A stretch of 64,000 nucleotides of DNA from Candidatus Bathyarchaeota archaeon (GCA_963780265.1 CAWABQ010000028.1:135491-199490); one strand, 5' to 3'; counted from the stretch's first letter, positions 3,187 through 19,182 are shown. Numbers and translations are program-made. The notes: generated by a model from the letters alone, not told the origin.

Positions 3187-3492
3187 GGGTTGGTGAGTTG
3201 GCGAGCGACTCCGGGCCCTATGCGTGATGGGCTTGAGGAAACTCCATCCACATGGCGGTCGCGTGGCACTGTGAGGTGCCGGCCGAGAGGCTGGGTTAAG
3301 GCGCAGAAAAATACCTCCGCCATCCGCGACTGTGATGCGCTTGCGTTGAGGAGGTTGGCGGTAAGGGTGAAATGCCTACACACGCTGTGAAAGGGATAAT
3401 AGGCGCCCGTGAGAACCGCCCAAGGCGCGGGTATCCCGATTAGATGAATGTCGCCTAAAACAGAAGGTGGGTTACGGCCAACACACCAACCC
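3187..3492 (+). ncRNA. rnpB: RNase P RNA (archaeal type A-like)
   Basis: Conserved RNase P RNA blocks are present: GAGGAAACUCC (~3235), GGUAAGGGUGAAA (~3360), UUAGAUGAAUG and ACAGAAGGUGGGUUAC (~3440..3476), close to E. coli M1 CCUAGAUGAAUGACU...ACAGAACCCGGCUUA. The 5' GGGUUGGUG/GUUGGC can pair with the 3' GGCCAAC/CACCAACCC (P1/P2). The only ORF here is an antisense read-through. Confidence 0.85.
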
Positions 3493-3500
3493 GTTTCATT
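3440..3500 (+). repeat. attL: 61-bp direct repeat covering the last ~53 nt of the RNase P RNA gene
   Basis: TTAGATGAATGTCGCCTAAAACAGAAGGTGGGTTACGGCCAACACACCAACCCGTTTCATT is identical (61/61) to 19122..19182. Confidence 0.9.
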
Positions 3501-3701
3501 ATCTTCTCTATTTTCTAAATCTGGCTTGTTTCCAGTTGATTGCATTTCTATTTGAACAATGTCGTTCTGTACGTGCATGTACGTACGTTTTCCGATGGAG
3601 TCAGCAATTGATTGCTCTGTTAGCCTGCTCATATTAATTCCAAGAGACTTTGCTTGCTGAACCAAATCGCGGTCCACACGAAACGTAAGCTTCTGTCTCA
3701 T
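3440..3701 (-). CDS. integrase N-terminal fragment Int(N) of a partitioned SSV-type integrase
   Basis: ATG at 3701, then 66 codons (MRQKLTFRVDRDLVQQAKSLGINMSRLTEQ, RHH-like), then 21 codons encoded by att (NETGWCVGRNPPSVLGDIHL). The rest of the 189-aa ORF (3132..3439) is antisense to RNase P RNA and is not considered coding. Confidence 0.6.
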
Positions 3702-3895
3702 TGAACCTTGACCGCCTTGTATACGTGTCCTTTGCCGTTATGCTTCTGGACGACTGCCAAGAACTTCTTTGCCAATTCCTCATCTTCCGTAAAATAACAA
3801 CTGCGCGTAGAAAACTTCAAGTCTTTGCCAAACTGGTCGGAAAAGAGAAAAAAGGACGACAAAAGGGCGACGAAAAGAAGAGAAAAGGCTGACAA
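3698..3895 (-). CDS. hypothetical small protein upstream of Int(N)
   Basis: 65-aa ORF whose stop overlaps the Int(N) ATG (ATGA). No recognisable motif. Confidence 0.3.
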   Translation of the reverse strand: MSAFSLLFVALLSSFFLFSDQFGKDLKFSTRSCYFTEDEELAKKFLAVVQKHNGKGHVYKAVKVQ

Positions 3896-3952
3896 TTTGC
3901 CAGTAGCAATAAATGATAGGCGACGCCAATTTCCTCGTCAGGAAGAGAGAAC

Positions 3953-4255
3953 ATGCCTGACTTTGCTTTCGTCTATAACTTGAATTCTGTTTTGCTCTAT
4001 TTGCTATGTGGCGGCCTCTACTTGGTATTGCGGAAGCGCCGTCGCTTAGATGACTTCAACATACGAGATTTCACAACAATTGAAGGCTTGTTCTTTCTCA
4101 TTGTATTCGGGTTGATGCAGGCTTACGGTCTTTCGGAGGTTCAAAATTCGCTAGCAACCTACGGGTTGTCCCTTTTTAGGCTAAGAACATCTGCGGTATT
4201 CTTTTTGGGTATTCTTGGCTTAGGCCACTTGGGTAAAAGCTACAATCGTAGCTGA
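3953..4255 (+). CDS. hypothetical small membrane protein
   Basis: 100-aa ORF with about 3 hydrophobic helices (VLLYLLCGGLYLVL, FFLIVFGLMQAYGL, AVFFLGILGLGHLG). Confidence 0.5.
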   Translation: MPDFAFVYNLNSVLLYLLCGGLYLVLRKRRRLDDFNIRDFTTIEGLFFLIVFGLMQAYGLSEVQNSLATYGLSLFRLRTSAVFFLGILGLGHLGKSYNRS

Positions 4256-4280
4256 CTCGAAAGGCGCTTGGCGAATTTAG

Positions 4281-4465
4281 CGTAATCGAACCAAAAAACA
4301 CTAAACAAGAGCCTATCGGACAGAAGATACGCCTTTCAGGAGAGAGTTCCAATTCAGGAATCTTTGCTTAGAGAAACGAAGTAAGCTCTCTGGTGTTACC
4401 AGCATCTCACTGTACCAGTTACACCATCCGTTATTCTTGGTTGAGACACCAATATCAAGAGAGAA
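4281..4465 (+). repeat. decayed IS (transposase 3' half) fragment, copy A
   Basis: Starts CGTAATCGAACCAAAAAACA and is alignable with 16628..16800 (GAGCCTATCGGACAGAA, GAGAGAGTTCCAATTCAGGAATCTTTGCTTAGA, GAGACACCAATATCAAG). Confidence 0.5.
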
Positions 4466-4467
4466 AT

Positions 4468-6012
4468 GAGCTATCATTGTCCGCTCTGCGGCCAAATTGT
4501 TACCCTGTTCCAGTACAATAGGATAACTGGCATCTGGAAGGAACGAGAGAAGTTACTCAGCAAGATCAGAGAAGAACGGAAGAAACTAGCTAGAAAGTCC
4601 GCCGGATTTTAGAAAGCGAAGAGCACAACTTGTCCAACAGGCGGTTCGAAAGCAAACTAAACCTTTAGAATCAAAGATAAGATCTCTGAAGCTTTCGCAA
4701 AGACAGCTAGAATCCAGCGCACAACAAGAAATGCGGCAAGCGACACTCCAAGCAAAGAAACTGCAAGGCAAGCTTAGGGAAAAGCTACTCAGAAGAATTG
4801 ATGACCAGAAGACAGCCTACGACCGACGAATCGGAAAAGAGCAGGAGAAGCTCCGAAAAGAATCCCTTAAGCTAAGAAAGCAGAAAGCCCGCCTCGTCCA
4901 ACAAATATCTAAGACGCAAAAGAGAAAATTTGAGACGCAGCTAAATGCGCTTAGACTCAGAGAGGCTCGAATAGAACAACGAACGCATCGAGAAAATACG
5001 CAGAGCTACAGCTTCAGCTCGTGAGAGAGCAAAGAGAATCGCAGCAATTCGCCTAAATTCGCTCAAAAGGGAATTTCGGAATCAAATAAGAAATGAAAGA
5101 GAACGCAACGCACGGGAAGTTGGAATAAAGTACAAGCGTCTGAACAACACGTTCCGATCTACCCTAATCCAAATGAAAGCAAAGACGACTCAGATTAAGG
5201 AACAAACAAGGCAGATAAGAGAACTGGAAAAGCAACTTAGACGACAGACTACCCCTCAGATAGAAGGACTTCTTTCTGAAGACATTCTGCTGAAGGAACT
5301 CAAGAAACGCTTCCCACAAGACAAGTTCCTGCATACGGGAAAGGGTGGAGACATACTGCATGAACTAATGCAAAATGGTCAGCCGGCAGGCTTGATTGTG
5401 TATGAGTGCAAACGAGTGAAACACTACTCAGCGAGTCATGTACAACAAACGTTAGATGCAAAAAAGAAAAGAAAAGCGGATTTTGCTCTCCTGGTAACCA
5501 ACGCGATGAAGAAAGGGACGCAAGGTTTCTTCACGGAGAGAGGAGTAGTGATTGTTCATCCAGCCGGGCTACTTCCGTTTGTAAGTATTCTAAGAGGACA
5601 AATGATGCACATTGCCGAAATGAAACTCGGACAGCGCGAAAGAGACAAGGCGATAAAAATGACATTAGAGTATCTTGAAGGACCACAGTTCGCTAATTCT
5701 ATGGATGCAATAGTTGAAGAGAGTATCAAACTATACCGCGACCTGCTTGATGAAGTTGAGAAACACATCGCCACATGGAAGCGGAGATACAGCTCTTACA
5801 ACAAAGTACACGAAGAAGCGTTATCCGTGAAAGGCACTAGCAAGGCGCTACTGAGCGGAGAACCCGAATACAAACAACAGATTCAAACGGACGCTTTCCC
5901 TGCGCTACCTGACATGCCCGAAGTAGAGAAGACGACCGCAAATCTTGTGGCTGAAAATTTCACCGGACACGCCGATAGAGAAGGTTCTGCGAAGGCGAGG
6001 GCGGTAGGCTAG
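4468..6012 (+). pseudogene. DUF2130-like coiled-coil / PD-(D/E)xK nuclease gene, fragmented by at least 3 frame disruptions
   Basis: Three pieces: N-terminal Zn-ribbon MSYHCPLCGQ (4468..4612, frame 1), K/R/E/Q coiled-coil pieces (frame 3 to 5024), then frame 1 from 4975 to 6012. The last piece carries the DUF2130 core (FPQDKF..GKGGDILHEL..GLIVYECKRVKHYS..ADFALLVTNAMKKG). Confidence 0.6.
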
Positions 6013-6029
6013 AAGGAGTTCTCCCACGC

Positions 6030-6509
6030 TTGGTGACAAGTCATTCCAGCCAACTAACAGGAATCGCTGGAACGTACTATGTTGCTGCAGAGCTGAGTCG
6101 CAGGGGATATTTGGCATATCCCACTTCGAGAAATGTCGGAGAGGTTGACATTCTCACAGCGAATCCCCGCACTGGCAAGTCAGTAAGCATTCAAGTCAAG
6201 TCAACATTGCGAGCTGAGGACAAAACTGGACGCTTGTACTGGATTTTGAACGAGAGAGCGGAAGGACTGAAAGACAGAAACTTATTTTATGTTTTCTTGA
6301 GTCTACAACAACCATCCAATTTCTACGTCGTTCCAAGCCAATCAGTGGCTAATTTCGTCGCAAAATATCACCGCAAATGGTTGAGACGTAAAGGACGACA
6401 TGGTCAAAGACACAAGAACACTAACATGCGGATGTGGTGGGCAGATAAGAGATACATCAACAAATGGGAATTACTCGGACTCGAATCCACTCCTAGTATG
6501 CCACGCTAA
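6030..6509 (+). CDS. hypothetical protein, PD-(D/E)xK nuclease-like N-terminal fold
   Basis: GIAGTYYVAAELSRRGYLAY..GEVDILT..SIQVKS matches the G-x-x-G-E..D-x-D..Q-V-K pattern of restriction-endonuclease-like small proteins. It starts 18 nt after the DUF2130-like gene. Confidence 0.5.
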   Translation: MVTSHSSQLTGIAGTYYVAAELSRRGYLAYPTSRNVGEVDILTANPRTGKSVSIQVKSTLRAEDKTGRLYWILNERAEGLKDRNLFYVFLSLQQPSNFYVVPSQSVANFVAKYHRKWLRRKGRHGQRHKNTNMRMWWADKRYINKWELLGLESTPSMPR

Positions 6510-6597
6510 TGCAACAGGCAACATTGTAACAGAACTTCTGAAGCGCTGCAAATAAGGGAAAGTTGACCGAGCTGCAACCAAATCGAGCAGATAGACA

Positions 6598-7035
6598 CTA
6601 TGGTCGCAAAAGAGGAATCACCCATTGTAACATTAGAAAGAAGACTACAAGAATAATCAGGAATGCAACAAACAAGGCAATCTTAGAGTCTGCGTATCGT
6701 ATCAAGTTCCCCCACTTCTTATCGTAAGTATGCTTTTTGATGTGTTTTTCGAGACTGCGCATGGTAGGAGCGGGGGGTTTAGGCGCATTTATCGCCGATG
6801 TGACAATCTGCCCGCACCAGAAAAAACGCACGATGCAAATTACGATAGCACTTACGATTGCGCTAAGAATGAACGAAAAGCCAAAGCTCGTGTTTGGAGT
6901 ACTAGGCAGTCTGGACCATATATCAACAACAGTCAGAATCGAGAGGACTAAGGTCACGAAATAGATCTTATAGTCCTGCATCAGAGATTTGTAGTATTCC
7001 AGAAGGGCTATTCTCGCCTGAAGCTGATCAGACAT
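6598..7035 (-). CDS. hypothetical membrane protein (3-4 TM)
   Basis: 145-aa ORF with clear TM helices (IYFVTLVLSILTVV, FSFILSAIVSAIVICIV, ALFVAFLIILVVFFLML). Confidence 0.6.
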   Translation of the reverse strand: MSDQLQARIALLEYYKSLMQDYKIYFVTLVLSILTVVDIWSRLPSTPNTSFGFSFILSAIVSAIVICIVRFFWCGQIVTSAINAPKPPAPTMRSLEKHIKKHTYDKKWGNLIRYADSKIALFVAFLIILVVFFLMLQWVIPLLRP

Positions 7036-7195
7036 GGATATTTGCCCTCGCCTACAGGCTAGTGCGAATGAATTAAGATTTGGGCAGATGTGAATGACAA
7101 TCTGTCCACGCCTTCATTTAATGATCCGACCAACTTCATAACTATGACATAGGAATAGAAACCACCGACAGAACAAGAAAACAAAGAAAGGCAAA

Positions 7196-7308
7196 GCGTA
7201 ATCGAACCAAAAAACACTGAGCATAAGGCAAGACAACAGAAAATCCAGAACTCACACAGTAACCAAAAATCATCGAACAAGAGAGCCTATCGGATACAAA
7301 ATAGAGAG
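7196..7308 (+). repeat. two short tandem IS-derived fragments (copies B1, B2)
   Basis: GCGTAATCGAACCAAAAAACAC at 7196 and GTAACCAAAAATCATCGAACAAGAGAGCCTATCGGATACAAAATAG at 7258. Both have the same 5' boundary as copies A and E. Confidence 0.5.
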
Positions 7309-7310
7309 TA

Positions 7311-7472
7311 ATGCATGAGAGATTTGCGGTGCCAAACACAGTAGAATGCCCAAACTGTAAGCAATGGTATCAGTCAAATCAGTCGAACGTCTGTCCATTT
7401 TGCGGCTACAAGGCCGAAGCATATCAGCACGTGAAGGCTGAAGGTTACGGCAATATGGGCGCGAAAGTATAA
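7311..7472 (+). CDS. hypothetical zinc-ribbon mini-protein (53 aa)
   Basis: MHERFAVPNTVECPNCKQWYQSNQSNVCPFCGYKAEAYQHV with CxxC..CxxC. It is below the ORF-track size cut-off and was read directly from the sequence. Confidence 0.35.
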   Translation: MHERFAVPNTVECPNCKQWYQSNQSNVCPFCGYKAEAYQHVKAEGYGNMGAKV

Positions 7473-7516
7473 CCCATCGGTAACTCAGGTAATTTCCCAC
7501 ATCAACCGTAGATTCT

Positions 7517-7999
7517 CTATCCGAGCAATGACGCTAAAGTGAGCATTATTAGCCCTAGACCCAACGGCATCATTGCAATTAGTCTAAAAACATGAGAGTT
7601 CTTGAGCTTGGTATTGGTGAACGGACCTAGAACTGACAAATAGAGTGAATAGACGATCTCAACGGAAAGAACGAGCAAAGTGACTACTCCCAGAATAATG
7701 GTGAAATCGGGGAGGTTCTCCTTTGTGAAAAGCAAGATTACGCCCGCGACAATAATGGAGGAAACAATTGAACAAATCGTCACGCACTTTTCGATAACCT
7801 TCTCCAAGAGTGGAGGACCTTGATTCACCTCGATGCCTCGCCTCGCAAGTCCCAATAGCGATAGAAATGAAATGAACAAGCTTTTGCCTCCGCTGCTCCC
7901 ACCTTGATTGTGATGGAGCCATAACGGAAAACAAAGTGACAGCGCTATGAAGACAATACCAATAAAATAAAGGAGAAATTTAGCAAAAATCAGGTACAA
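7517..7999 (-). CDS. hypothetical membrane protein (4-5 TM)
   Basis: 160-aa ORF that is strongly hydrophobic throughout. Confidence 0.6.
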   Translation of the reverse strand: MYLIFAKFLLYFIGIVFIALSLCFPLWLHHNQGGSSGGKSLFISFLSLLGLARRGIEVNQGPPLLEKVIEKCVTICSIVSSIIVAGVILLFTKENLPDFTIILGVVTLLVLSVEIVYSLYLSVLGPFTNTKLKNSHVFRLIAMMPLGLGLIMLTLASLLG

Positions 8000-8114
8000 G
8001 CGTGTGTCATTCCCTATTTCTCGTAGTGTTTGCCTTCCAGATTATAAGACAATCATAATCAACGTAAACTGATTAGAACGCAAAGGTGATGCGATTTAAA
8101 CATCCGATAAGCAC

Positions 8115-8205
8115 ATAACCAAAAATCATTGGGCAAAGGCCTGAGCAATAGAAAATATGTCCTTGGCGAGAGATTTCAATTCCGGAGTATTTTGCTTAAA
8201 CGGCA
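8115..8205 (+). repeat. IS-derived fragment, copy C
   Basis: ATAACCAAAAATCATTGGGCAAAGG...GAGAGATTTCAATTCCGGAGTATTTTGCTTAAACGG matches 16628..16720. Confidence 0.5.
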
Positions 8206-8382
8206 TATCCGACACATCAGGTTACAGGGCGACTCAACAAAATTAGAAATTAGCGTTTCGATTCAACCAATACGTATGCTATGAACAAGTTAGTCGCGGC
8301 AAAACCAGCCGTGGAATCAGGGTTCGACTTCATTCTTCAGAAAGACGGTTTAGCGTATTTCAGAAAACGAAAATAGCTAAGG

Positions 8383-9075
8383 CTATTTTGTTCCGCGATG
8401 ACGCTTCCAAATCACGAAGATAACGACTCCGCTCACTACAACCAAGAACACAAAGAAGACAACGTAGTTGTTGAAGGTGAACGAGTTCGATGGCAGCAGT
8501 TGACTGGACGCATTAGGTAAGGACGCCAGAGATGAGGTATAGGAAGTAGGTTGGTATGTGGCGGAGGTGAACGTACGAAATACCTGGGACCAACAAGTAA
8601 ATGAAATATTCGTATCCGTTATTCGAGGATTCCAGAAAACAAAGTAGTAGTTGTCAGAATCTGGAACCGTCCAGTCCATTGAGTAAGAAGTAATCCCATT
8701 AGCTGCCACATGTGCACTGGGAGGTACAACTTTGCCGCAGACGCCGCCGCCCTTACTAGTCAACTCTACAGCTTGCAAGCGTTGGAGCTGGCTGCTACTC
8801 AACACCCAGAAGTTTATCGGTTGACTGGCTTGTACCGTACCGAATAATTCTGTTCCAACGTATCCCTCCTCTAGTTGAATATCCGAATAGTAACAGCCGC
8901 TCGAAGTGTAACCGGGCACGTCAAATTGCTGATTCTGGATGGTATTCGTTATCACGTAAGTTGTGACGTAAGATTGCCTAACGCTGGAACCTTGAGAGAT
9001 TGCTGGAATTGTAACTAAAGATAACAACAGGAGAAAACCAACTATGACTTTGCTGGGAATGCGCAAGCTAGACAT
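8383..9075 (-). CDS. secreted, C-terminally membrane-anchored protein
   Basis: N-terminal signal peptide (VIVGFLLLLSLVTIPAISQG), a beta-rich S/T/Y ectodomain, and a C-terminal TM plus basic tail (VVFFVFLVVVSGVVIFVIWKRHRGTK). Confidence 0.65.
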   Translation of the reverse strand: MSSLRIPSKVIVGFLLLLSLVTIPAISQGSSVRQSYVTTYVITNTIQNQQFDVPGYTSSGCYYSDIQLEEGYVGTELFGTVQASQPINFWVLSSSQLQRLQAVELTSKGGGVCGKVVPPSAHVAANGITSYSMDWTVPDSDNYYFVFWNPRITDTNISFTCWSQVFRTFTSATYQPTSYTSSLASLPNASSQLLPSNSFTFNNYVVFFVFLVVVSGVVIFVIWKRHRGTK

Positions 9076-9127
9076 GGACCGTCCCCAAGGGACGAGTTTA
9101 TCCGCTTGTTAGTAGAAAACACTTGTC

Positions 9128-9335
9128 ATGCCATAAGGACTACAATAACTGGCTGACTGTAATCCAAGAAGCGAGCCGGTTGAAAGTCAGAAGAAGTAGA
9201 TCACGGGCAAGTAATGAGAACGCTAGAGAAAGGAGACACGCCAATCTTAACGGGTATGGAGATTTTTCACAACTACGTACGACCACGCATGACACTAGGC
9301 GGACGAACCCCAGCCGAGGCGGCAGGCATCAAGGT
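9128..9335 (+). mobile_element. two abutting remnants of a DDE (rve, IS6-like) transposase C-terminus
   Basis: NNWLTVIQEASR (the end of one copy) is followed by MRTLEKGDTPILTGMEIFHNYVRPRMTLGGRTPAEAAGIKVEG. The x-HNY-x-RPH..L-x-G-x-TPAE signature marks rve-domain transposases. There is no intact catalytic domain. Confidence 0.55.
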
Positions 9336-9352
9336 TGAAGGGTCGAAAGAAT

Positions 9353-9784
9353 TCAAAGCAGTTTCAGAAAGAGATACCCGGAATACACGATTCGTAGAAA
9401 TAGTAATGCTATCGGAATACTCATTATGACCTCGGCGAGAGGGCCAAGAAATGAAAGACTGGATACGAAAAGGGCGAAAGCAACAAACAAAGTGGCACTC
9501 GCAACATAGTATGTTGTCTCAGAAAGCAAATATTCCACTAGGAGAGTTCCTTCTCGCGCAATTTCGGAACTAACGAAGAATAGAACCGTTGAGAACGTCA
9601 ATGCAAAAATGATTGAAGAAACACTTGGCAAGTTGCTTTGGAAGAACCCTATAATAAACGCAAGACTAGCAAAGGCAAAACCAGAAAGAGCCAGTGAATT
9701 ACTACATAAGGTGCTCAGATATTTCTCCGACATCTTTTCCTTCATTTTGCGCTGAAAGAAAGGTTTCATAACCAAATAGGCCAA
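9353..9784 (-). CDS. hypothetical membrane protein (4 TM)
   Basis: 143-aa hydrophobic ORF (LALSGFAFASLAFIIGFF, IIFALTFSTVLFFV, ATLFVAFALFVSSL, IMSIPIALLFL). Confidence 0.55.
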   Translation of the reverse strand: MAYLVMKPFFQRKMKEKMSEKYLSTLCSNSLALSGFAFASLAFIIGFFQSNLPSVSSIIFALTFSTVLFFVSSEIAREGTLLVEYLLSETTYYVASATLFVAFALFVSSLSFLGPLAEVIMSIPIALLFLRIVYSGYLFLKLL

Positions 9785-9905
9785 GCTTTTTGTCGCCCTT
9801 GTCAGATTTAAGACCTGTTAGGAAGGCGAAGGGATACACTTGCCCCAAGTGCAGGGTCCGAGTCTATGCGGGTGAGCAGCATGTTTGTGCTTGAGGTGAT
9901 GCTCA

Positions 9906-10028
9906 ATGTCTGAGAATAAGGAAGAGAAAAAGGAAACGAAGCGAATAAAAATACAAGAATCCAAACAGGATCGCTGTGAAAAATGTGGGGAACTGATGTT
10001 CAGTGGCGAGGAACACGCATGTGGTTAA
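9906..10028 (+). CDS. hypothetical mini zinc-ribbon protein (40 aa)
   Basis: MSENKEEKKETKRIKIQESKQDRCEKCGELMFSGEEHACG. It is the only one of three tandem C-x-K-C..GE-x-H/S-x-C units with an ATG. Confidence 0.3.
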   Translation: MSENKEEKKETKRIKIQESKQDRCEKCGELMFSGEEHACG

Positions 10029-10342
10029 GACTTGAAGGAAATAGCTATTGACCGACTACACACGTTTCGATGGTGCAAAGCAACGGTACTGCGCCAAATG
10101 CAAAGCCTATCACTACAGCGGCGAAAGTTGCCCTAACTCGTAAATACCAACCGGTCACCATTCGGTTGATTAGTAGGTTTCTGCTCATTCTCAACCTGAG
10201 CGGTGCAATTGACTGAAGCAAAGCGTGAGGTTAAGATCGGCAATCTGACCTTCCACGACTTTAGGCATCCGAAACCAAGCGCAACTTTTGCGACTGTAGA
10301 GAGAATGGTTCTGTGCACCGTAAAGGGGTTTGAGGGTCAAAA

Positions 10343-10675
10343 ATGACCAACGCCAACCGCGAAGAAGCGCTAAATATTCTTAAGAGCATGGGGGAATGGG
10401 AACATGTCGTCCGATTGTTGACCGACTTGCGAGTAGGCGGTACACAACCAAAGATTGACTATGAGTTCGGTCATGATCTGTATGATATTGGAAGCGAAAT
10501 CGATAGTTATGGCATTCTTACAGTGCGCTTTTTCGTGAAATCGGAAGTGGCATTGCTGAGAGTGAATGATCAGTTTGTTGATCTAGATGTTGAGGAGATC
10601 TGGAATCAAATCACGAATATCCCAAAGTGGTTAAATTTAGTCCATATTGTGGGAGAAATTAGTTCTGTTTCTTAG
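10343..10675 (+). CDS. hypothetical protein
   Basis: 110-aa acidic ORF with an ATG start and no recognisable motif. It lies upstream of hsdR. Confidence 0.45.
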   Translation: MTNANREEALNILKSMGEWEHVVRLLTDLRVGGTQPKIDYEFGHDLYDIGSEIDSYGILTVRFFVKSEVALLRVNDQFVDLDVEEIWNQITNIPKWLNLVHIVGEISSVS

Positions 10676-10752
10676 ATGCGTTCTGTATTGGCGTTAACCA
10701 CCTGTTCTCGCCCTCACTGTGATAGCTTCAACTTCGAACGAATTCTAGGAAA

Positions 10753-10785
10753 GAGAACCAAAAAACATCGGACAAAAACCGATGG
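10753..10785 (+). repeat. short IS-derived fragment, copy F
   Basis: GAGAACCAAAAAACATCGGACAAAAACCGATGG shares the AACCAAAAAACATCGGA 5' block with copy E. Confidence 0.4.
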
Positions 10786-10899
10786 CTCTTCTTGATGAGG
10801 AAGAACATCGACATTACTGCCTCAAAGACGATCAAGCCTGGCTTGGCAAAGACCTATCTTGAATACACGCCCGTACTGTAATCTCAAGCTGGAAGCTGT

Positions 10900-13713
10900 A
10901 TGGCCAGACGCTCGTCCGAATGGCGTACACGCAGAGAAAAAATCGATGTCTTGCTAAAGCGGTCTGGCTGGGACGTGGATGACAGAACTAAAGTTTACCA
11001 AGAAGTAGACACCAAGCAATCTGATTTCAAAGCTGGAAAATACAAGACAGTAACAGAAACGCTCAAGACACCAGAGGAGAAAGCATACGCTGATTATCTT
11101 CTCCTTGACGCTCATGGACTTCCATTGGCAGTAATAGAAGCTAAACGAACCGACAAGGAATACTTGTCAGGTGAGAAGCAGGCTGAAGGTTACGCCGATG
11201 ACATAAAGAAGCAGACTGGAAAAGACATTTTCATTTTTCTCACAAACGGCTATGAGATATGGTTCTGGAACAGACCGTTCGAGGCGCCGCGAGCAGCCAG
11301 CGGTTTCCATGACAGAAATTCCCTTGAACGTTTGCGTTTCCAAAATGAGAACAAGAAGGATTTCGCTGAGGTTCCCATAAAGCGAGAGATCATTGATAGG
11401 CCGTACCAGATTGAATCGGTTAAACGAATTCTTGAAGGAATCGATAAGGGAAAACGAAAGTTTCTTATCGTGCAGGCTACCGGCAGCGGAAAAACTCGCG
11501 TCGCTATGGCTTTGATTGATGTGTTGCTACAAGCGAATAGGGCTCAAAGAATTCTGTTTCTCGCTGACAGAAAGGAACTCAGAGACCAAGCGTACGGAGA
11601 CAACGGTTTCAAAGCTTTCTTCCCTCAGGAATCTAAAGTCAAAGTGTTCTCGGGGCAAGTTGACAAAACACCACGTCTTTACGCTTCAACCATCCAGACG
11701 TTCATGGAGTGTTATCAGGAGTTTTCTCCTGGTGACTTCGACGTAATCATCTCAGATGAGGCTCATCGCTCTATCTACAACAAATGGAAGGAAGTATTCA
11801 CTTACTTTGATGCAATCGAGATTGGGCTAACTGCCACGCCTTCCGATCTCATAGAACGTGATACTTTCCGATTTTTCAATTGCGAGCAGAACACTCCGAC
11901 CTATCTCTACGGCTACGAAGAAGCAGTCAAAGACCACGTCCTGTGCGATTATAAAGTGTTCAAAGCACAAACTCATTTTCAGATAGAGGGCATTCAACCA
12001 TCCGATGTTCCAGACTCAATCAAGAAGAAACTGCTTGAAGAACAAGGAGTCGTGGAGGAAGAAATTAATTTCGAAGGGACCGACATAGAGAAGAAGGTTG
12101 TCGTAATAGGAACTAACGAAGCAATCGCAAAGGAATTTATGGACGACTGCTTAACCGACGCAGCTGGACTACCTGCCAAGACAATTATCTTCGCCGTCTC
12201 GCAGAAACATGCGACCCGACTCTGGGAGGCATTTGAAAAGCTCTATCCGCAATACAAAGGACAACTCGCGAGGAGAATTGTGTCAGAGGACATGAGGGCA
12301 GATGAACTTCTGAAACAATTCAAGACTGACAGTTTTCCCAGAGTTGCCATCTCAGTTGGAATGCTCGATACTGGAGTGGACATACCTGAAGTATGCAACC
12401 TCGTTTTCGCAAAACCCGTATTTTCTAAGATACGATTTTGGCAGATGATTGGCAGAGGAACCCGCCATGAGAGCGTATGCAGGCATAAGGATTGGCTCCC
12501 TGAAGAGGGCAAAGAATACTTCCTGATTTTCGACTTCTGGAACAATTTTGAATGGCACAACATGCATCCAAAAGGCAAAGAATCGACTCCCAGCGACGCC
12601 ATTCCAACAAGGATTTTTCTTACTCGACTCCAACAGCTGAACTATTTGCTCGAAACTAAAGACACTCGCGCAGAACTCATCAAAGAAGAGATTACTCAAG
12701 ACATCAATTCACTGCCTCAAGATTCAATCTCCATAAGAGAACACTCACGCGATGTTGAGAAAGCACTCTCACCCAGCTTCTGGGAAAATGTGGGCCTCGA
12801 CCAAAACAAACTCCTAAAGACCAAGATTGCGCCATTAATGAGGTATCAAAAAGATGTCAACCTTAACGAGGCAGCATGGACACTAAAAATCGAACGATTG
12901 AACCTCGCGATTCTAAAGAACAATCAGGCTGAGAAAGAGAGAGTTAGAGACGAAATTGGCGAATGGCTCAACGCACTTCCCACAACGATTCAAGAAGTCA
13001 AGGCAAAACAAGAATTACTAGACAGAGTAGTGCGGCCCAACTTCTGGGCAACGGTGACCTTTGAGGATGCTCAAATGCTGCTTAAGGAATTCACTCCACT
13101 AATGAAATACAAAGAGTCAGAACCAAGACCCACAATAATCCTCGACATTGACGATATGCTTCAGAAAAGAGAGTTTATTGAATATGGACCCATCCCCACG
13201 GAAGAATATGTGAGCACTTACGTGGAGAAAGTCGAGAAGAGAATCAAGGAACTCGCTGAACAGCATCCCACTATCGAGAAGATCAAGCGCGACCAAGTCC
13301 TAAATGAAGAGGACCTTAGAAATTTGGAGAAGACACTGAACAGTCCGGAACTTTACATCACAGAGGAAACACTCCAGAAAGCGTACAGACAACACAAGGG
13401 CACAATGGTCCAATTCATCAAGAAGGTTCTAGGACTCTACGAGTTTCCTGACGCAAACAAGAGAATTGCTGATTCATTCAAAACCTTCGTCATTGAAAAG
13501 AACTATCTGAACTCAGACCAAGTTAATTTTCTGCGCACAATACAAACTGTATTCAGCAAGAAACATCACATAGAATATGACGATCTTTTCGATGCACCCT
13601 TTACAAACTTTGGAGTGAACTTTCCAGTCCCAGCTTTTGGGGAAGACGATTTGCGAGACGTAATTAACCTGTGTAACAGTCTAGAGGTGGAAGTATTCCA
13701 TGCTATCGCCTGA
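10900..13713 (+). CDS. hsdR: type I restriction enzyme, R subunit (HsdR, EcoEI-like C-terminus)
   Basis: N-terminal PD-(D/E)xK (YADYLLLDAHGLPLAVIEAKR), SF2 helicase motifs (IVQATGSGKT, ISDEAHRS, QMIGRGTR) and an EcoEI_R_C-like tail (NYLNSDQVNFLRTI). Its stop overlaps the hsdM start. Confidence 0.95.
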   Translation: MARRSSEWRTRREKIDVLLKRSGWDVDDRTKVYQEVDTKQSDFKAGKYKTVTETLKTPEEKAYADYLLLDAHGLPLAVIEAKRTDKEYLSGEKQAEGYADDIKKQTGKDIFIFLTNGYEIWFWNRPFEAPRAASGFHDRNSLERLRFQNENKKDFAEVPIKREIIDRPYQIESVKRILEGIDKGKRKFLIVQATGSGKTRVAMALIDVLLQANRAQRILFLADRKELRDQAYGDNGFKAFFPQESKVKVFSGQVDKTPRLYASTIQTFMECYQEFSPGDFDVIISDEAHRSIYNKWKEVFTYFDAIEIGLTATPSDLIERDTFRFFNCEQNTPTYLYGYEEAVKDHVLCDYKVFKAQTHFQIEGIQPSDVPDSIKKKLLEEQGVVEEEINFEGTDIEKKVVVIGTNEAIAKEFMDDCLTDAAGLPAKTIIFAVSQKHATRLWEAFEKLYPQYKGQLARRIVSEDMRADELLKQFKTDSFPRVAISVGMLDTGVDIPEVCNLVFAKPVFSKIRFWQMIGRGTRHESVCRHKDWLPEEGKEYFLIFDFWNNFEWHNMHPKGKESTPSDAIPTRIFLTRLQQLNYLLETKDTRAELIKEEITQDINSLPQDSISIREHSRDVEKALSPSFWENVGLDQNKLLKTKIAPLMRYQKDVNLNEAAWTLKIERLNLAILKNNQAEKERVRDEIGEWLNALPTTIQEVKAKQELLDRVVRPNFWATVTFEDAQMLLKEFTPLMKYKESEPRPTIILDIDDMLQKREFIEYGPIPTEEYVSTYVEKVEKRIKELAEQHPTIEKIKRDQVLNEEDLRNLEKTLNSPELYITEETLQKAYRQHKGTMVQFIKKVLGLYEFPDANKRIADSFKTFVIEKNYLNSDQVNFLRTIQTVFSKKHHIEYDDLFDAPFTNFGVNFPVPAFGEDDLRDVINLCNSLEVEVFHAIA

Positions 13714-15181
13714 ACTGAAATCGCAGGTCAACAAACTCTGGGACAGGTTCTGGTCAGGAGGGATAGCCAACCCGCTTACTGCGATCGAACAGATGTCGTA
13801 CCTAATTTTCATGAAGCGCTTGGAAGACCTTGACAGTATTCACGCCAAGAGAGCTGCCATTAGAAAAGAGAAATTCAAGTCGATTTTTCAGGGACATGAG
13901 GACTGCCGTTGGTCACAGTGGAAGAACCTGAGTGCAGAGGCGATGCTAAAACACGTCTTGGGAGTCGTTTTTCCATTCATAAAGAATTTGACGAATGGCG
14001 ATGATGTCCTCTATTCGCAATATATGAAGGACGCAATGTTCGTCATCCCTAAGGCCTCTCTGTTGCAGGAGGCGGTCGCGATTATCGATGAGATGAACAT
14101 CACCGAAAGGAATCAAGACACACAAGGCGACATCTATGAGCACCTCTTGGCCGAACTCAAGACCTCGGGAAAGAATGGGCAATTCAGGACGCCACGTCAT
14201 ATCATCCGTATGATGGTCGAGCTTGTTGACCCTGACATAGGCCAGACGGTCTGTGACCCAGCGTGCGGCACGGCGGGGTTCCTTATTGCAGCATACGAGC
14301 ACATCTTGAGACGGTATACGAGCGATGAGATTGTCAGTGTGGACGAGGACGGTTCCGTGCATAACCTTTACGGAGACAAGATCATCGAGAAAGCTCACTG
14401 GGATCTTCTGAAACGCGAAACGTTCTTCGGATTCGATTTCGACACCACGATGATCCGCATTGGCCTTATGAACATGATATTGCACGGAATCGAGAGGCCC
14501 AACATTCGCTACTCGGACACGCTCTCGAAACGATTTGAACAGAAACCAATCTATGACATGGTATTTGCGAATCCTCCGTTTGCGGGTTCAATCGATAAGA
14601 GCGACATCAATGACACATTCAAACTGGACACGGCGAAGACAGAGCTTCTCTTTCTCGAACTGTTCTACAACCTCCTCAGAATGGGAGGTCGGGCTGCGGT
14701 TATTGTTCCCAATGGAGTTCTCTTCGGCTCCTCAAATGCTCACATTAAGGCGAGGCAATTACTTCTTGAGCAGTCAGAGCTTCAAGCCGTTGTTTCGATG
14801 CCCTCCGGAATCTTCCAACCCTATGCAGGCGTGAGCACAGCAGTCCTCGTTTTCGTAAAAGGAGGCAAGACGGAGAATGTCTGGTTCTATGAAATGAAAG
14901 CGGATGGCTATAGTTTGGACCAGAAACGTGATTTCATTGACGGCAAAGGCGACATACCTGACATCATCAAAGAGTTCAAAAGGCGTGCCAAATCGGCTCA
15001 GAGTATTCTTGTGCCCTTTTCAGAGATAAAGAAGAGTGACTACAATCTCTCCATATCACGCTACAAGAAGGTTGAGCATGAGGAAGTAGCGTACGAGGAC
15101 CCGGAAGTTTTGATTGAGAAAGTTTCGCAATTAGAGGAAGAGATTGCGAAGGATTTGCAGGAATTGAAAGCGATGATTTAG
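13700..15181 (+). CDS. hsdM: type I restriction-modification N6-adenine DNA methyltransferase (HsdM)
   Basis: HsdM N-terminal domain (LWDRFWSGGI), SAM motif (VCDPACGTAGFL) and catalytic FANPPFAGS. Confidence 0.95.
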   Translation: MLSPELKSQVNKLWDRFWSGGIANPLTAIEQMSYLIFMKRLEDLDSIHAKRAAIRKEKFKSIFQGHEDCRWSQWKNLSAEAMLKHVLGVVFPFIKNLTNGDDVLYSQYMKDAMFVIPKASLLQEAVAIIDEMNITERNQDTQGDIYEHLLAELKTSGKNGQFRTPRHIIRMMVELVDPDIGQTVCDPACGTAGFLIAAYEHILRRYTSDEIVSVDEDGSVHNLYGDKIIEKAHWDLLKRETFFGFDFDTTMIRIGLMNMILHGIERPNIRYSDTLSKRFEQKPIYDMVFANPPFAGSIDKSDINDTFKLDTAKTELLFLELFYNLLRMGGRAAVIVPNGVLFGSSNAHIKARQLLLEQSELQAVVSMPSGIFQPYAGVSTAVLVFVKGGKTENVWFYEMKADGYSLDQKRDFIDGKGDIPDIIKEFKRRAKSAQSILVPFSEIKKSDYNLSISRYKKVEHEEVAYEDPEVLIEKVSQLEEEIAKDLQELKAMI

Positions 15182-15182
15182 C

Positions 15183-16385
15183 ATGGATCTTCCGAACGGA
15201 TGGAGTGCAGTCAGACTGGGCGAAGTCTGCAGGGTCATGGATGTTGACCACAAGATGCCGAAGTCGCAGCCGAATGGAATACCGTTCATATCTGCTAAGG
15301 ACTTGGTGGGGAGCTCGTCCATTGACTTTAGCGAAACGAAATTCATTTCCGAAGAGGATTATCGTCGGCAGGCGAAAAAATGCGCTCCGAAAAAGAACGA
15401 TGTATTGTTCACTCGAATCGGAACGATAGGTGTCGCACGGTTAGTCAAGGACGACCGAAGATTCGGGATTTCCTATAGTCTATGTGTTGTCAGACCCTCA
15501 GAAAAAGTCGTGCCAGAGTATTTGGAGGCGCTGATGAACTCGGAAGTCGTCAAGAAGCAGGCGACAATGGGAACTCAAAGTATAGCCGTGCCCGATTTGG
15601 GCCTAAAACAGATAAGAGATTTCTTGATACAGCTTCCGCCTCTGAACGCTCAGAAAAGAATAACCAGCATTTATGAAAGAGCAACACGACTGAAGGACTT
15701 ACGCAGACAAGCAAACCAGCTTACCAGCAGAATCATCCAGTCAGTCTTTCTGAAGATGTTTGGAGATCCTGCAACGAATCCGAAGGACTGGCCAACTACA
15801 ACAATAGGAAATCATGCAAACATACGGTACGGAACTGGCAGCCCTCCTCGCTACGAAGAGAATGGAATACCGTTCGTTCGAGCTACAAATATCAAGATGG
15901 GCAGAATCGTCAGCCGTGAAATGAAATTCATTTCGGAAGAATCCACGAAGAGGATAGCGAAATGCAGGTTACAGAGCGGTAACCTCATTCTGGTGAGGAG
16001 CGGCGTAAATACGGGCGACTGTGCGTATGTGACAGACGATTACGACGGAGCGTATGCGGCTTACGATCTCATTCTAGATTTTGACAAGGACCTAAACAGC
16101 CGTTTTGTCTGGGCGATTCTGAACATGCCCCATGCAAGGAAAATCATGAAGTCGAGGAGCATCAGAGCGGCTCAACCTCATCTTAATGCTGGTCAGGTGT
16201 CCTCCATAGAAGTCCCGAAACCTCCAATTGAATTGCAAAGGAAGTTTGTGTCTTGGATAGAGAGAATCGATGGACTTGAGGCCAAACAAATGCGATCATC
16301 TCAAGAAATCAATCAACTCTTCAACTCTCTCATGCACAAAGCCTTCAGAGGAGAACTCAAGCGTGCGGAGACGAGAATTGCTTGA
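15183..16385 (+). CDS. hsdS: type I R-M specificity subunit (HsdS), two target-recognition domains
   Basis: Duplicated architecture with conserved spacers (LPPLNAQKRITSIYE..., VPKPPIELQRKFVSWIE...LMHKAFRGEL). It starts 2 nt after the hsdM stop. Confidence 0.9.
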   Translation: MDLPNGWSAVRLGEVCRVMDVDHKMPKSQPNGIPFISAKDLVGSSSIDFSETKFISEEDYRRQAKKCAPKKNDVLFTRIGTIGVARLVKDDRRFGISYSLCVVRPSEKVVPEYLEALMNSEVVKKQATMGTQSIAVPDLGLKQIRDFLIQLPPLNAQKRITSIYERATRLKDLRRQANQLTSRIIQSVFLKMFGDPATNPKDWPTTTIGNHANIRYGTGSPPRYEENGIPFVRATNIKMGRIVSREMKFISEESTKRIAKCRLQSGNLILVRSGVNTGDCAYVTDDYDGAYAAYDLILDFDKDLNSRFVWAILNMPHARKIMKSRSIRAAQPHLNAGQVSSIEVPKPPIELQRKFVSWIERIDGLEAKQMRSSQEINQLFNSLMHKAFRGELKRAETRIA

Positions 16386-16500
16386 TGTCGGTAGACGTGT
16401 GCTCGTTCAATTAGCCGAGCTAATCTAAATCACTTCGTTTTCTTGCGGCTTCATATCAACTTCTTTCGAAGTCTTGCTGCACTTAACAACCATAGGTACA

Positions 16501-16545
16501 GACGAACCAAAAAACACCTAACAAGAACCTATCAAACATAGAGCT
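16501..16545 (+). repeat. short IS-derived fragment, copy D
   Basis: GACGAACCAAAAAACACCTAACAAGAACCTATCAAACATAGAG. Confidence 0.4.
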
Positions 16546-16627
16546 ACTTGAATACTTGAATGGATAATGCAAACAAACAATCCACTCAGAACCGCAAGGT
16601 GTGCGACAACAATAGAACAAGACCTAA

Positions 16628-16936
16628 CGTAACCAAAAAACATCGGAAAAGAGAGCCTATGAGACAGAAAAATACGACTTTCGAGAGAGATTTCAATTCC
16701 AGAGTATTTTGCCTAGACGGTCTAACTGACATGTAAATCGCGAGCGACTAATGAGAACGCTAGAGAAGGGAGACACACCAATCTTAACGGGTATGCAAAT
16801 CTTCCACAACTACATTCGACCACACCAAGCATTGAACGGAAAGACACCCGCCGAACTAGCGGGAATAGAAATCCAAGGCGACAACAAGTGGCTTACCTTG
16901 ATTCAAAATGCGAGCCGTAAAACTGCAAAGTCTTAA
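16628..16936 (+). mobile_element. longest remnant of the IS (rve/IS6-like) transposase 3' half, copy E
   Basis: CGTAACCAAAAAACATCGG...ERDFNSRVF (decayed), then the intact-looking tail MRTLEKGDTPILTGMQIFHNYIRPHQALNGKTPAELAGIEIQGDNKWLTLIQNASR. No N-terminal or catalytic part is present. Confidence 0.6.
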
Positions 16937-16965
16937 GAACCTTTGCGACTGTACGGGGAGTCCCA

Positions 16966-17736
16966 TTGCGACAGCGAACCCGAACTTTAGTCATCATTCT
17001 CCTAGTTTCCTCAGCCTTGACGATAGAGCTAATTCCAAACGCAAGTAGCCAGCAATTTACCACATCTACCTCATTTCTTACAAGTTCGTTGACCCAAACT
17101 GTGACTCAGTATGTTCCAACCTCCACGATTGTAACCCAAGCCAGCATGACTAGCGCAACGACCAGCTTCCCACTTCAATCTGCACAAGGCGCATGCCTCT
17201 ACAATATCGCTTACTTCACGCTTACATTCAACACTACGGAGCCGTTGCAGATCAGTTACGACTTGCATCCTCTTAGCCTTCCATATTCTTCATACATAGA
17301 CATGTATATCGGGGGGTCCTACTTCCCAGGAAGTGGACCATTTACCCCATTTACCTTAAACGGGTCGCATTGTGTTCTAAATGGTTATTACCCTGCATTA
17401 TTCGGAAATTATTTCGGCCTTGTAGGGACTGGAACCGTGAATACGACCTCGGCGCTATCAAGTGGAACTTATGCAATACTTGTGGTAGCCTATGCGCCCT
17501 ATGCACCCTCAACGGTTACGTTGGCAATAACATTTCCAGCAGCAACCTACGCTACTACATCGTTCTTTTCCATGTCCATGATACTAACGACCAGTGGAAT
17601 GACAACTCTTACAACCTCAACCATCTTAGAAGTACCATTCATCCAAACCTATGGCTATTTGATAGTTGCTGCTGTAATTGCGGTGTTACTCGTTGGTCTA
17701 CTGTTGTTCACTCGACGAATGAGGCAGCTAAAGTGA
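16966..17736 (+). CDS. secreted S/T-rich protein with C-terminal membrane anchor
   Basis: Signal peptide (LVIILLVSSALTIELIPNASS), a T/S-rich ectodomain, and a C-terminal TM plus basic tail (LIVAAVIAVLLVGLLLFTRRMRQLK). Confidence 0.6.
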   Translation: MRQRTRTLVIILLVSSALTIELIPNASSQQFTTSTSFLTSSLTQTVTQYVPTSTIVTQASMTSATTSFPLQSAQGACLYNIAYFTLTFNTTEPLQISYDLHPLSLPYSSYIDMYIGGSYFPGSGPFTPFTLNGSHCVLNGYYPALFGNYFGLVGTGTVNTTSALSSGTYAILVVAYAPYAPSTVTLAITFPAATYATTSFFSMSMILTTSGMTTLTTSTILEVPFIQTYGYLIVAAVIAVLLVGLLLFTRRMRQLK

Positions 17737-17884
17737 AAGAATCCAAGCTTACCTAGGTGACGGTTTTTTACAGCCCCTTTCAAGACAGGGGAAAACGGTT
17801 AGGTGACGACATCTTGACGTTACCTCACTAAATCCGCTTTATTACGATCAGTTACGCAGAGTAACAATAGCCCATCCATTGAAC

Positions 17885-18235
17885 TCACACACCGTAAGTC
17901 GGATAGACTTGCTTGACTTCACCTTTCGAATCTACCCCTAGTAATACTAAGCCTAGTTTGTCGAAGACTTTAGAGTCAATGTGTTTTGCAGCGCGTAAGG
18001 TCGTAACCATCGCTACTTGGTCGTACCCGTAGGCTAATGCTTCGGATAGCTGTCCTATCCCGCGTGTAATATCGTCCCGAGGTGTTTTCAACTCCAAAGC
18101 CATCCTCCAGCCTTTCCCTAGAACCTCACCATCTATCGCCACATTACCCAATCGTATCGAACGCATCTGAACCTGCAATCCTTTGCTTCGGAAATGCTTT
18201 GAAACAGCCCACTTGAGCCAGCGGAGATTTGTCAA
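17885..18235 (-). CDS. small PD-(D/E)xK-like protein translationally coupled to the integrase
   Basis: The 116-aa ORF start overlaps the integrase stop by 4 nt. NVAIDGEV..WRMALELKT resembles the D..E-x-K core of Hjc/YraN-like nucleases. Confidence 0.45.
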   Translation of the reverse strand: MTNLRWLKWAVSKHFRSKGLQVQMRSIRLGNVAIDGEVLGKGWRMALELKTPRDDITRGIGQLSEALAYGYDQVAMVTTLRAAKHIDSKVFDKLGLVLLGVDSKGEVKQVYPTYGV

Positions 18236-19182
18236 TTGCGTTCTCCTTCCAGCAGGCGTAGGTTGACTGATTCATAGACGATTTTCATCTTGTCAACTCT
18301 GAAGTCAGAGTAGTGTCTAGCTAGAATTGACTTGGGAGCTCTGCCTTGAAATGCGTCAACATACCTATCTTGAACGCCAAGACTGCCCATCCTATCTGCG
18401 AACCAATCTCGCAAATCTTTAGGCTTAATCTTGAATCCACACTGTTTGCTAGCCTTCTCGAAGACATGACGCAAACCTTGAGGTAGCAGATTGAAGAGTT
18501 GCTCATTCCCTTGCCAAGTCTCTTTGGATGCTAAATGATTTTGTAGCAGTTGATCGCATTCGGGAGAGTAGAACGAGCACCAAGACTTCTTGGTTGAGCC
18601 TTCATGATTCTTGGGAATGATCGCTCTTCTGGATATGTCCAAGTCTTCGTAGCGTAACGATAGAATCTCCATCTCACGGAGACCGCTAGTTGCAAGCAAG
18701 AGGAACATGAGCTGGTGTACCGGTTTTGTAAGAGCATTATAAAAGAGCCTCATTTTCTCAGTGCTTGGAGCTTCTTTGGGAACGAAGGGCGCTCGTGGAT
18801 AACGAAAACTGTCGGTTATTGGTGAACCAAGAAAGCTTCTGTAGAAGCATCGAAATCCACGAATTATGTTAGCTCTACTGTTGGGTGGAGAATCGGAGTA
18901 GTTTTCAAGCATATAGTTTCGAAGATCATCTCTTGTAGCTTGTCTTAGATCCTTTGGAAACGATTTCGAGAAGCATCTCATTATTCCTTTGTAGCGCTCA
19001 ATGGTCTCTTTTGCAAGTTGCAGGTCCACTCTACAGAATTTGCTGAATTCGTCAAGAAGCTCAAGTGCGTTGACAGACTCGCCATAATTTGTAGTGTTTG
19101 CGAGAGGATTATTCGGGCTGTTTAGATGAATGTCGCCTAAAACAGAAGGTGGGTTACGGCCAACACACCAACCCGTTTCATT
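18232..19182 (-). CDS. tyrosine recombinase, C-terminal fragment Int(C) of the partitioned integrase
   Basis: Catalytic-domain motifs are present (LLATSGLREMEILSL, KDLRDWFADRM, ILARHYSDF). The frame stays open upstream of the GTG at 19029, through att and on to 19287, with no ATG/GTG/TTG. The gene therefore lacks its own N-terminus. Confidence 0.8.
   Translation of the reverse strand, partial: NETGWCVGRNPPSVLGDIHLNSPNNPLANTTNYGESVNALELLDEFSKFCRVDLQLAKETIERYKGIMRCFSKSFPKDLRQATRDDLRNYMLENYSDSPPNSRANIIRGFRCFYRSFLGSPITDSFRYPRAPFVPKEAPSTEKMRLFYNALTKPVHQLMFLLLATSGLREMEILSLRYEDLDISRRAIIPKNHEGSTKKSWCSFYSPECDQLLQNHLASKETWQGNEQLFNLLPQGLRHVFEKASKQCGFKIKPKDLRDWFADRMGSLGVQDRYVDAFQGRAPKSILARHYSDFRVDKMKIVYESVNLRLLEGERN
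19122..19182 (+). repeat. attR: second copy of the 61-bp repeat (displaced 3' end of RNase P RNA)
   Basis: 61/61 identity with 3440..3500. Confidence 0.9.

Follow-up and report, generated by a model that had tools for sequence, protein, structure and literature searches.

The 64,000-nt stretch of Candidatus Bathyarchaeota archaeon DNA analyzed here (GCA_963780265.1 CAWABQ010000028.1:135491-199490; hereafter, the window) very probably carries an integrative element of 15,682 bp, made up of positions 3501-19121 and one copy of the attachment site (att), which entered by recombination between an attP site inside its own integrase gene (int) and an attB site formed by the 3' end of the host RNase P RNA gene. 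The element lies between two direct repeats of 61 nt, at 3440-3500 and 19122-19182. These are the only two copies of the sequence, they match without a single mismatch and they are spaced by 15,682 nt. The original prediction had reported the perfect 61-bp pair, and its exact positions and 61/61 identity are borne out: no match to the 61-mer arose in 100 dinucleotide-preserving shuffles, and an independent repeat search recovered the pair as family D5. The data support the assignment of the repeats as the attL and attR sites of a site-specific integration.

No tRNA or tmRNA gene was detected by ARAGORN anywhere in the 64-kb window, and no tRNA was found at either element junction. The integration target is an archaeal RNase P RNA gene on the plus strand, matched by the Rfam model RF00373 along the full model (positions 1-288) at 3193-3486, with a score of 168.6 bits vs. 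a gathering score of 84. The helix P1, formed by 3187-3202 (GGGUUGGUGAGUUGGC) and 3477-3492 (GCCAACACACCAACCC), has 15 of its 16 positions paired; because this pairing shows a compensatory change, from U-A to C-G at one pair in related species, the RNA is taken to span approximately 3187-3492, with its 3' end at 3492. attL (3440-3500) consists of the last 53 nt of the RNA (3440-3492) and 8 additional nt, GTTTCATT, which are antisense to the int codons for N-E-T. In the Rfam alignment, the repeat covers the 3' strands of P2, P4/CR-V (the conserved segment ACAGAAGG...UUAC) and P1, and the first 45 nt of att show no variation in any related locus. attR (19122-19182), identified in the repeat searches, includes the displaced copy of the RNA 3' end. 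The RNase P RNA gene stays full length, with an identical 3' end supplied by the element, and is predicted to be functional. The original prediction placed the RNase P RNA and the hut genes outside the repeat-bounded interval, where Pfam and Rfam searches located them, and missed the overlap between attL and the RNA gene. A target-site duplication made by a transposase can be discarded: 61 nt greatly exceeds the length of such duplications, terminal inverted repeats are absent, and the repeated sequence belongs to a functional RNA and lies within an integrase open reading frame (ORF).

The integrase gene is divided between the two ends of the element. On the minus strand, int(N) starts with an ATG at 3701 and extends to 3441, comprising integrase codons 1-87, which specify an N-terminal ribbon-helix-helix (RHH; CcdA-like) domain, a linker and 20 att-encoded residues (NETGWCVGRNPPSVLGDIHL). 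At the far end, int(C) (19182-18232, minus strand) begins with the att codons, continues into the SAM-like and catalytic domains and has no internal stop. Both 3500 and 19182 fall on the first position of a codon, and a common frame runs through att without a stop. When 3701→3501, a single att and 19121→18232 are rejoined, they encode a protein of 383 aa (87 + 296 codons), which matches PF16795 (archaeal phage integrase; E=4.5e-9, 36.8 bits, cut-off 27), PF00589 (E=3.2e-7, 30.7 bits, cut-off 27.1), PF13495 (SAM-like; E=6.9e-6) and, with residues 4-39, PF07362 (CcdA-like ribbon-helix-helix; E=1.9e-5). Unsplit, full-length homologs of the same architecture exist, e.g., P0013, P0039 and P0043. 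The original prediction had noticed an integrase at the ends of the interval; integrase pieces are indeed present at both ends, and they are the parts of one split gene, not two genes. In the integrated state, the int(N) ORF continues antisense to the RNase P RNA until a stop at 3132.

An AlphaFold model of the rejoined integrase, built from a 20-sequence alignment, is mostly confident over residues 104-380 (pLDDT largely 80-96, with short dips near 195, 265 and 355), and Foldseek matches it to archaeal XerA (5hxy, 9.6e-10) as well as to IntI4 and lambda Int. The model predicts a two-domain tyrosine recombinase fold. R236, K265, R325, R348 and Y358, considered as alignment positions only, are invariant across the 20 sequences. 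Residues 40-103, which include the att-coded residues 68-87, have pLDDT values below 50 and no secondary structure, and this linker of about 60 residues is predicted to be unstructured. The best sequence match in the PDB is an archaeal XerC-like protein (4a8e, 1.5e-7). Judged from its sequence, the enzyme would be an SSV-type ("suicidal") tyrosine recombinase, with attP located in the linker-coding DNA of its own ORF; the label follows from the PF16795 match and the split-gene architecture, not from similarity to SSV1. Recombination between attP and the RNase P RNA gene's 3' end is its predicted activity.

In the proposed mechanism, attP, situated in the part of int that codes for the linker and antisense to the RNase P RNA, would recombine with attB, which comprises ~53 nt at the 3' end of the host gene for this RNA. 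Integration would split int, so that int(N) lies beside that gene and int(C) at the opposite end; the element-borne RNA 3' end would complete the RNase P RNA gene, and the original 3' end would be displaced to attR. Excision would need an intact integrase, brought by a related incoming or tandem element. For elements with suicidal integrases, excision has been observed once an intact related enzyme is provided in trans (PMC8371274), and by analogy the element in the window probably depends on such help. Self-excision is unlikely because int is split and no other integrase lies nearby: besides the split int and an int(N)-like relic, described below, none was found in the 64-kb window. The suggestion in the original prediction that the element is recent or still excisable can be kept in part, since the repeats are identical and both int halves are intact; the split gene and the lack of a second integrase in the window speak against excision by the element alone.

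Base composition and related loci argue for an insertion at this site. The comparison of GC content proposed with the original prediction gives a lower value inside the element (0.451 over 3501-19121) than outside (~0.52): the left flank has 0.529, the right flank 0.519, and equal-sized windows outside the element 0.513-0.524. Loci L016-L022, recovered from several peat metagenomes, share 82% nucleotide identity with the window in both flanks, contain a single att copy and an RNase P RNA that scores 175 bits, and have the gene order hutI, hutU, rhomboid, RNase P RNA, TrmB, peptidase A24, TSR3, YjeF, AsnC-like, TiaS. The distance from the RNA 3' end to TSR3 is 2.06 kb in these loci vs. 18.06 kb in the window. 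They represent the unoccupied site in a related species; the search for an empty site in relatives, also suggested at the outset, has in this sense succeeded. A much closer strain (L004), about 97% identical in both flanks, is likewise without the 15.6-kb element. The features that mark a genomic island, i.e., att repeats, an integrase next to them, a composition that departs from the surroundings and relatives with the site unoccupied, were all found, and so was everything that the original prediction of a site-specifically integrated element implies (att pair, adjoining tyrosine integrase, GC content, unoccupied site). In the analysis, the host assignment comes from an NCBI metagenome-assembled genome labeled "Candidatus Bathyarchaeia archaeon", the closest named relative, which is 88% identical in the flank. 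Exact-protein searches with two flank genes (rhomboid and TSR3) gave no match, probably owing to different calls of their start codons.

Three further loci (L025, L006 and L008), which have a single att and a homolog of the window ORF 19390-19854 downstream, were considered as precise empty sites and rejected, as the sequence directly after the RNA 3' end cannot be aligned; the L016-type loci alone serve as the unoccupied site. These loci, from species 87-88% identical (L006 6689-9594, L008 and L025), carry MazE/PIN and HicB-like toxin-antitoxin modules and KaiC-like ATPases 3' of the RNase P RNA. The region 3' of the RNase P RNA differs among species, even where no integrase is present.

The same site is used by other elements. 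The closest integrase homologs (61-93% identity) sit on metagenome contigs. In L001 and L003, with integrases 61 and 90% identical to that in the window, int(C) starts with an RNase P-derived att; L002 (63%) shows the same YjeF-TSR3 side flank as the window and, among its cargo, a Peptidase_S74 gene and a weak GIY-YIG match; in L010 (87%), which holds an element of ~6.6 kb with RelA/SpoT-like and SIR2-like genes, and in L011 (~90%), the RNase P RNA adjoins int(N). The junction of attL type (RNase P RNA, att, int(N)) was assembled independently in L010 and L011, and that of attR type (int(C), att, flank) in L001, L002, L003 and L010; these loci come from separate samples and their sequences are diverged. 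The ORF that int(N) forms in the integrated state, 189 aa long with an RNase P-antisense tail, served as a probe for public data and retrieved 20 distinct fusion proteins composed of an RHH int(N), the att peptide and an RNase P-antisense tail. The 18 of these with a full int(N) part fall into 16 groups at 80% identity, with pairwise identities of 39-88%; the exact 189-aa ORF is found on a single 210-kb NCBI/ENA contig. Because so many distinct fusions fall into so many groups, insertion into the RNase P RNA gene is common in this integrase clade. Scans of genome contigs with an alignment of the integrase subclade and with the YjeF protein gave no match.

In more distant relatives, att derives from tRNA genes. 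Homologs at ≤45% identity have tRNA-derived peptides (RDLNPGARLH, WWAGPDLNRRP, GFEPT, AGSNPAGP) at the same protein position, and the antisense DNA of the linker in the full-length P0043 (...GGTCGCCGGTTCAAGTCCGGTCCGGCCCACCA) and in P0008 (...CCCGGGTTCAAATCCCGGCCCCGGCCCTCACC) looks, on reading, like tRNA 3' halves. RNase P sequence is limited to the subclade with at least 61% integrase identity. We infer that this subclade exchanged tRNA genes for the 3' end of the RNase P RNA, a similarly conserved sequence, as its target. The more general proposal, that RNase P RNA is a regular, so far unreported class of integration target and that a diverse self-splitting clade, with at least 16 int(N) lineages, moved from tRNA to the 3' catalytic-core strand of the ribozyme (P4/CR-V, P2, P1), seems to us about evenly balanced between right and wrong. 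If it is true, many peat and soil archaea carry an element-supplied part of the essential RNase P ribozyme gene. Antisense overlap with the RNase P RNA amounts to 53 nt for the int transcript and, in the integrated state, to the whole gene for the int(N) ORF; this arrangement could possibly give the element a handle on host tRNA processing.

Several observations weigh against entry by this route. The nucleotide-precise empty site, with 3439 joined to 19183, was not found in the data, and the closest strain, L004, holds a different insert of 2.8 kb between two att copies. Neither a circular or excised form nor a free attP-bearing copy of the subclade was found, and no replication module that would maintain a free form was identified. 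In L010, the integrase frame is open across the right-hand att, but the contig stops at residue 49. A phmmer comparison with the structures of the SSV1 integrase C-terminal part (3vcf, 4dks, 3uxu) was insignificant (E ~0.4). Finally, the low pLDDT of the linker could stem from the shallow 20-sequence alignment rather than from disorder. The open frame in L010 was also considered as proof of a rebuilt intact integrase and rejected: given where the contig stops, this stretch could be a relic.

A decayed insertion next to attR suggests that the site has been used repeatedly. The segment 19183-21096 (GC 0.498) has an int(N)-like start: on the minus strand, 19183-19290 is in frame with att and encodes ...SQPEIQSLQNNSNSANSPR|NETGW..., with no RHH domain and no start codon. 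Its product resembles an int(N) linker (VQIEMQS...) and was aligned with int(N) of L010; in a tblastn search the integrase match carries on to 19260. A third att copy, truncated to the 16 nt of the P1 3' strand, follows at 21097-21112 (repeat family D7) and aligns with the 3' end of a 51-nt att' (92% identical to att) in L004. Beyond 21112 lies the remnant of a peptidase A24 gene (Arc_PepC_II at 21136-21399, E=0.021). The segment 19183-21096 is absent from L004. The 8 nt by which the 61-nt repeat extends beyond the RNA reflect homology between int of the element and int of the older insertion, and not an RNase P flank. Together, 19183-21112 is a probable relic of an older tandem insertion, which would give the layout RNase P RNA, att, element (15.6 kb), att, relic (1.9 kb), att remnant, flank. 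In L004, the 2.8-kb segment between att and att' (5823-8729) has no integrase; its genes are for an HTH_45 regulator and an uncharacterized protein of 637 aa. This segment could represent a further relic or an element that is not autonomous.

The fate of elements at this site, as seen in the relic, gives some weight to the view that the 15.7-kb interval is itself an immobilized remnant, i.e., a once mobile element that no longer leaves the chromosome and is retained for its restriction-modification (R-M) genes alone. Its integrase is split with no intact copy within the window, no replication genes were found, and int(C) has no ATG, GTG or TTG start upstream of 19029. A remnant nevertheless appears doubtful, as the repeats have stayed identical at 61 of 61 positions, int(N) retains its ATG and its RHH domain, int(C) is free of stops and frameshifts over 317 codons, and related suicidal-integrase elements can be excised by an intact integrase in trans (PMC8371274). 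In addition, the 97%-identical strain lacks the element, whose insertion is therefore recent.

The original prediction left the element to be either a plasmid or a virus. Its integration stands; neither label finds genes to go with it. Among the element ORFs, no replication initiator (Rep, MCM or primase-polymerase) and no conjugation genes were recognized with Pfam, NCBIfam and PHROGs, and the same databases gave no match to capsid, packaging or other virion genes, with half of the ORFs lacking any family. A temperate archaeal virus whose structural genes have diverged too far for recognition could look like this: SSV-type integrases were first described in fuselloviruses (PMC8371274), the ORFs without a family include several small hydrophobic proteins, and the related L002 encodes a Peptidase_S74 domain (described in Pfam as a chaperone of endosialidase). 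Such a provirus is nonetheless improbable. Besides the missing virion matches, neither the integrase by itself, nor the alignment of the subclade, nor the conserved 33-mer of att found a match among IMG/VR viral contigs, and an alignment of the wider integrase family gave one distant match; moreover, the cargo is wholly different between elements (R-M here, SIR2 and RelA/SpoT-like genes in L010), with no common structural module. The element is best classed as a cryptic integrated element carrying defense genes. That the repeat is an assembly artifact (a mis-joined contig or duplicated k-mer path) and the interval not truly inserted, as the metagenome-type assembly and the occurrence of the exact int(N) ORF on one 210-kb contig alone might suggest, is hardly credible given the independent attL- and attR-type junctions in diverged sequences from other metagenomes, the 20 distinct attL-type fusion ORFs on record and the integrase halves that remain in frame through att; this also removes the assembly duplication that the original prediction had named as its possible refutation.

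Insertion into tRNA and tmRNA genes by integrases is textbook knowledge, whereas the use of other structural RNA genes is rare. Suicidal integrases of the SSV type, also called type I, are known from SSV1 and SSV2 in Sulfolobales and from the pTN3 and pT26-2 families in Thermococcales (PMC8371274, PMC7253208). They carry attP inside the int ORF, and integration yields int(N) and int(C); in the review of these families, all listed targets are tRNA genes, and target switching stays within tRNA classes (PMC8371274). The integrase in the window resembles them in being a PF16795 tyrosine recombinase with attP in the int ORF, in its division into int(N) and a catalytic int(C), and in an att tens of nt long; as in these systems, a conserved structural RNA gene is targeted in its 3' part and restored by the element, and the att peptide varies between relatives. 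It differs in its target, which is RNase P RNA and not a tRNA gene, in its N-terminal CcdA-like domain (neither "RHH" nor "ribbon-helix-helix" occurs in the review, PMC8371274) and in its hosts, archaea of peat and soil metagenomes, whereas the known families come from hyperthermophiles. A parallel in this last respect is NitEve-E3 of Nitrososphaera evergladensis SR1, a cryptic archaeal element of comparable size (11 kb) from a non-hyperthermophile with a split SSV1-like integrase and no viral genes; its site, by contrast, is a tRNA-Glu gene with a 46-nt att (PMC6563490). A survey of 68 thaumarchaeal integration sites lists tRNA genes, genes for proteins and intergenic sites, and does not mention RNase P (PMC6563490).

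Bacterial islands and prophages that insert in the tmRNA gene (ssrA) or in the gene for the 4.5S/SRP RNA (ffs; phiEf11, PMC12540744) similarly use the 3' part of a small essential structural RNA gene and supply a replacement 3' end, but they belong to another domain of life, target other RNAs and encode conventional, unsplit integrases. phiEf11 restores ffs partly, with 12 of the last 17 nt changed (PMC12540744), whereas in the window the whole 53-nt segment is exact. Tandem or stacked insertions at a single archaeal att are known (PMC8371274), including two tandem proviruses in Nitrososphaera gargensis (PMC6563490). The relic beside the intact element is akin to these in the repeated use of att and the element-att-element array; it differs in its place behind an RNase P RNA gene and in that about 1.9 kb of the older member is left, along with an att remnant of 16 nt.

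In the literature searched, including PMC6563490, PMC8371274 and the TIGER/Islander announcement, neither RNase P RNA nor rnpB is reported to serve as an attachment site, although a bacterial precedent is possible; in 2025, a site in ffs used by a phage was still presented as novel (PMC12540744). What is added here is the RNase P RNA target, the split integrase and the clade-wide use of the site. A move from tRNA classes to a ribozyme gene would provide suicidal integrases with a new target, and the location of the att peptide in a linker predicted to be unstructured suggests a mechanism, as such a linker may be able to encode almost any target. Sites like the RNase P RNA att would probably be logged as intergenic, and scanning RNase P RNA 3' ends should reveal more of them. 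The host range also widens: self-splitting integrases, known mainly from hyperthermophiles, are present here in archaea of peat and soil metagenomes, on elements that carry type I R-M, SIR2-like and RelA/SpoT-like genes.

The type I R-M system noted in the original prediction is a complete operon. hsdR (10900-13713), hsdM (13700-15181) and hsdS (15183-16385) are contiguous on the plus strand, match the Pfam families ResIII, HSDR_N, EcoEI_R_C, N6_Mtase, HsdM_N and Methylase_S, and are recognized by PADLOC as REase_I (4.9e-151), MTase_I (6.7e-172) and Specificity_I (5.6e-71), respectively; the Pfam and PADLOC matches both extend over almost all of each model. In L010, the positions 1396-2499 and 4102-5142 encode a RelA/SpoT-domain protein (PADLOC PDC-S33) and a SIR2-like protein, candidate defense genes that stand in place of the type I R-M system of the window. 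From these two cargoes, it follows that the elements probably persist as small carriers of defense genes.

The remaining cargo is less telling. On the plus strand, 5173-6012 encodes a 279-aa DUF2130 protein (PF09903, E=6e-27), a nuclease-like gene such as the original prediction lists, and 6030-6509 an uncharacterized 159-aa protein with similarity to a phage family (phrog_29029, E=5.6e-9). Four minus-strand ORFs (6598-7035, 7517-7999, 8383-9075 and 9353-9784) have no match in Pfam, NCBIfam or PHROGs; on reading, their products are hydrophobic and look membrane-bound or secreted, in line with the orphan membrane proteins listed in the original prediction. Next to int(C), a 116-aa ORF at 17885-18235 on the minus strand overlaps the integrase stop codon by 4 nt. 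Searches of Pfam, PHROGs and PADLOC gave no family match for it; the positions 17893-18235 align at 83-88% with L010, L011 and L012, where the ORF is kept beside int. A motif IDGEV...ALELK (D...ELK), picked out by eye, indicates that it may be a small PD-(D/E)xK nuclease, and it could be an accessory factor for recombination.

A 13-mer, AACCAAAAAWCAY, occurs seven times on the plus strand in intergenic spacers of the element (4289, 7205, 7261, 8117, 10756, 16505 and 16631), against 0.02 copies expected, and nowhere in the window outside it. The copies share an extended consensus of ~40 nt, keep the same strand regardless of the direction of the neighboring genes and are absent from all 26 fetched loci, related elements included; they could be binding sites of a regulator, iterons or debris similar to miniature inverted-repeat transposable elements (MITEs). 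A fragment resembling a transposase C terminus is present twice, at 9196-9317 and 16733-16854 (78% identical), one copy with an rve_3 match at E=0.013. The segment of ~225 nt that follows hsdS (16629-16854) recurs in pieces at 7259-7301, 8152-8214 and 9196-9317 (78-84% identity). This three-piece repeat is probably old insertion sequence (IS) debris broken up by a later insertion that contains the ORF 8383-9075. The IS debris of the original prediction is, on this evidence, weakly supported: two transposase-like fragments speak for it, and the sole family match is the marginal one to rve_3.

In the left flank of the window, hutU (urocanase) is split into overlapping plus-strand ORFs at 789-2168 (459 aa) and 2165-2458 (97 aa), which suggests a frameshift near 2165. 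In most relatives, hutU is a single gene of 551-552 aa; L024 also has a separate 97-aa Urocanase_C gene. Either a genuine frameshift carried by some members of the population or an error in sequencing could account for the split. To the right of the element, 26037-26242 is a tandem array with a 9-nt period (GGCGGATAC / GGCGGCTAT), with about 15 or more in-register copies, one plus-strand frame of which reads Gly-Gly-Tyr. Rfam matches on the minus strand identify a 113-nt tRNA at 44968-45080 (46.3 bits), missed by ARAGORN and probably an intron-containing archaeal tRNA gene, and, at 52287-52397, an aptamer of a TPP riboswitch (RF00059, 70.2 bits), in a genome that is evidently archaeal.

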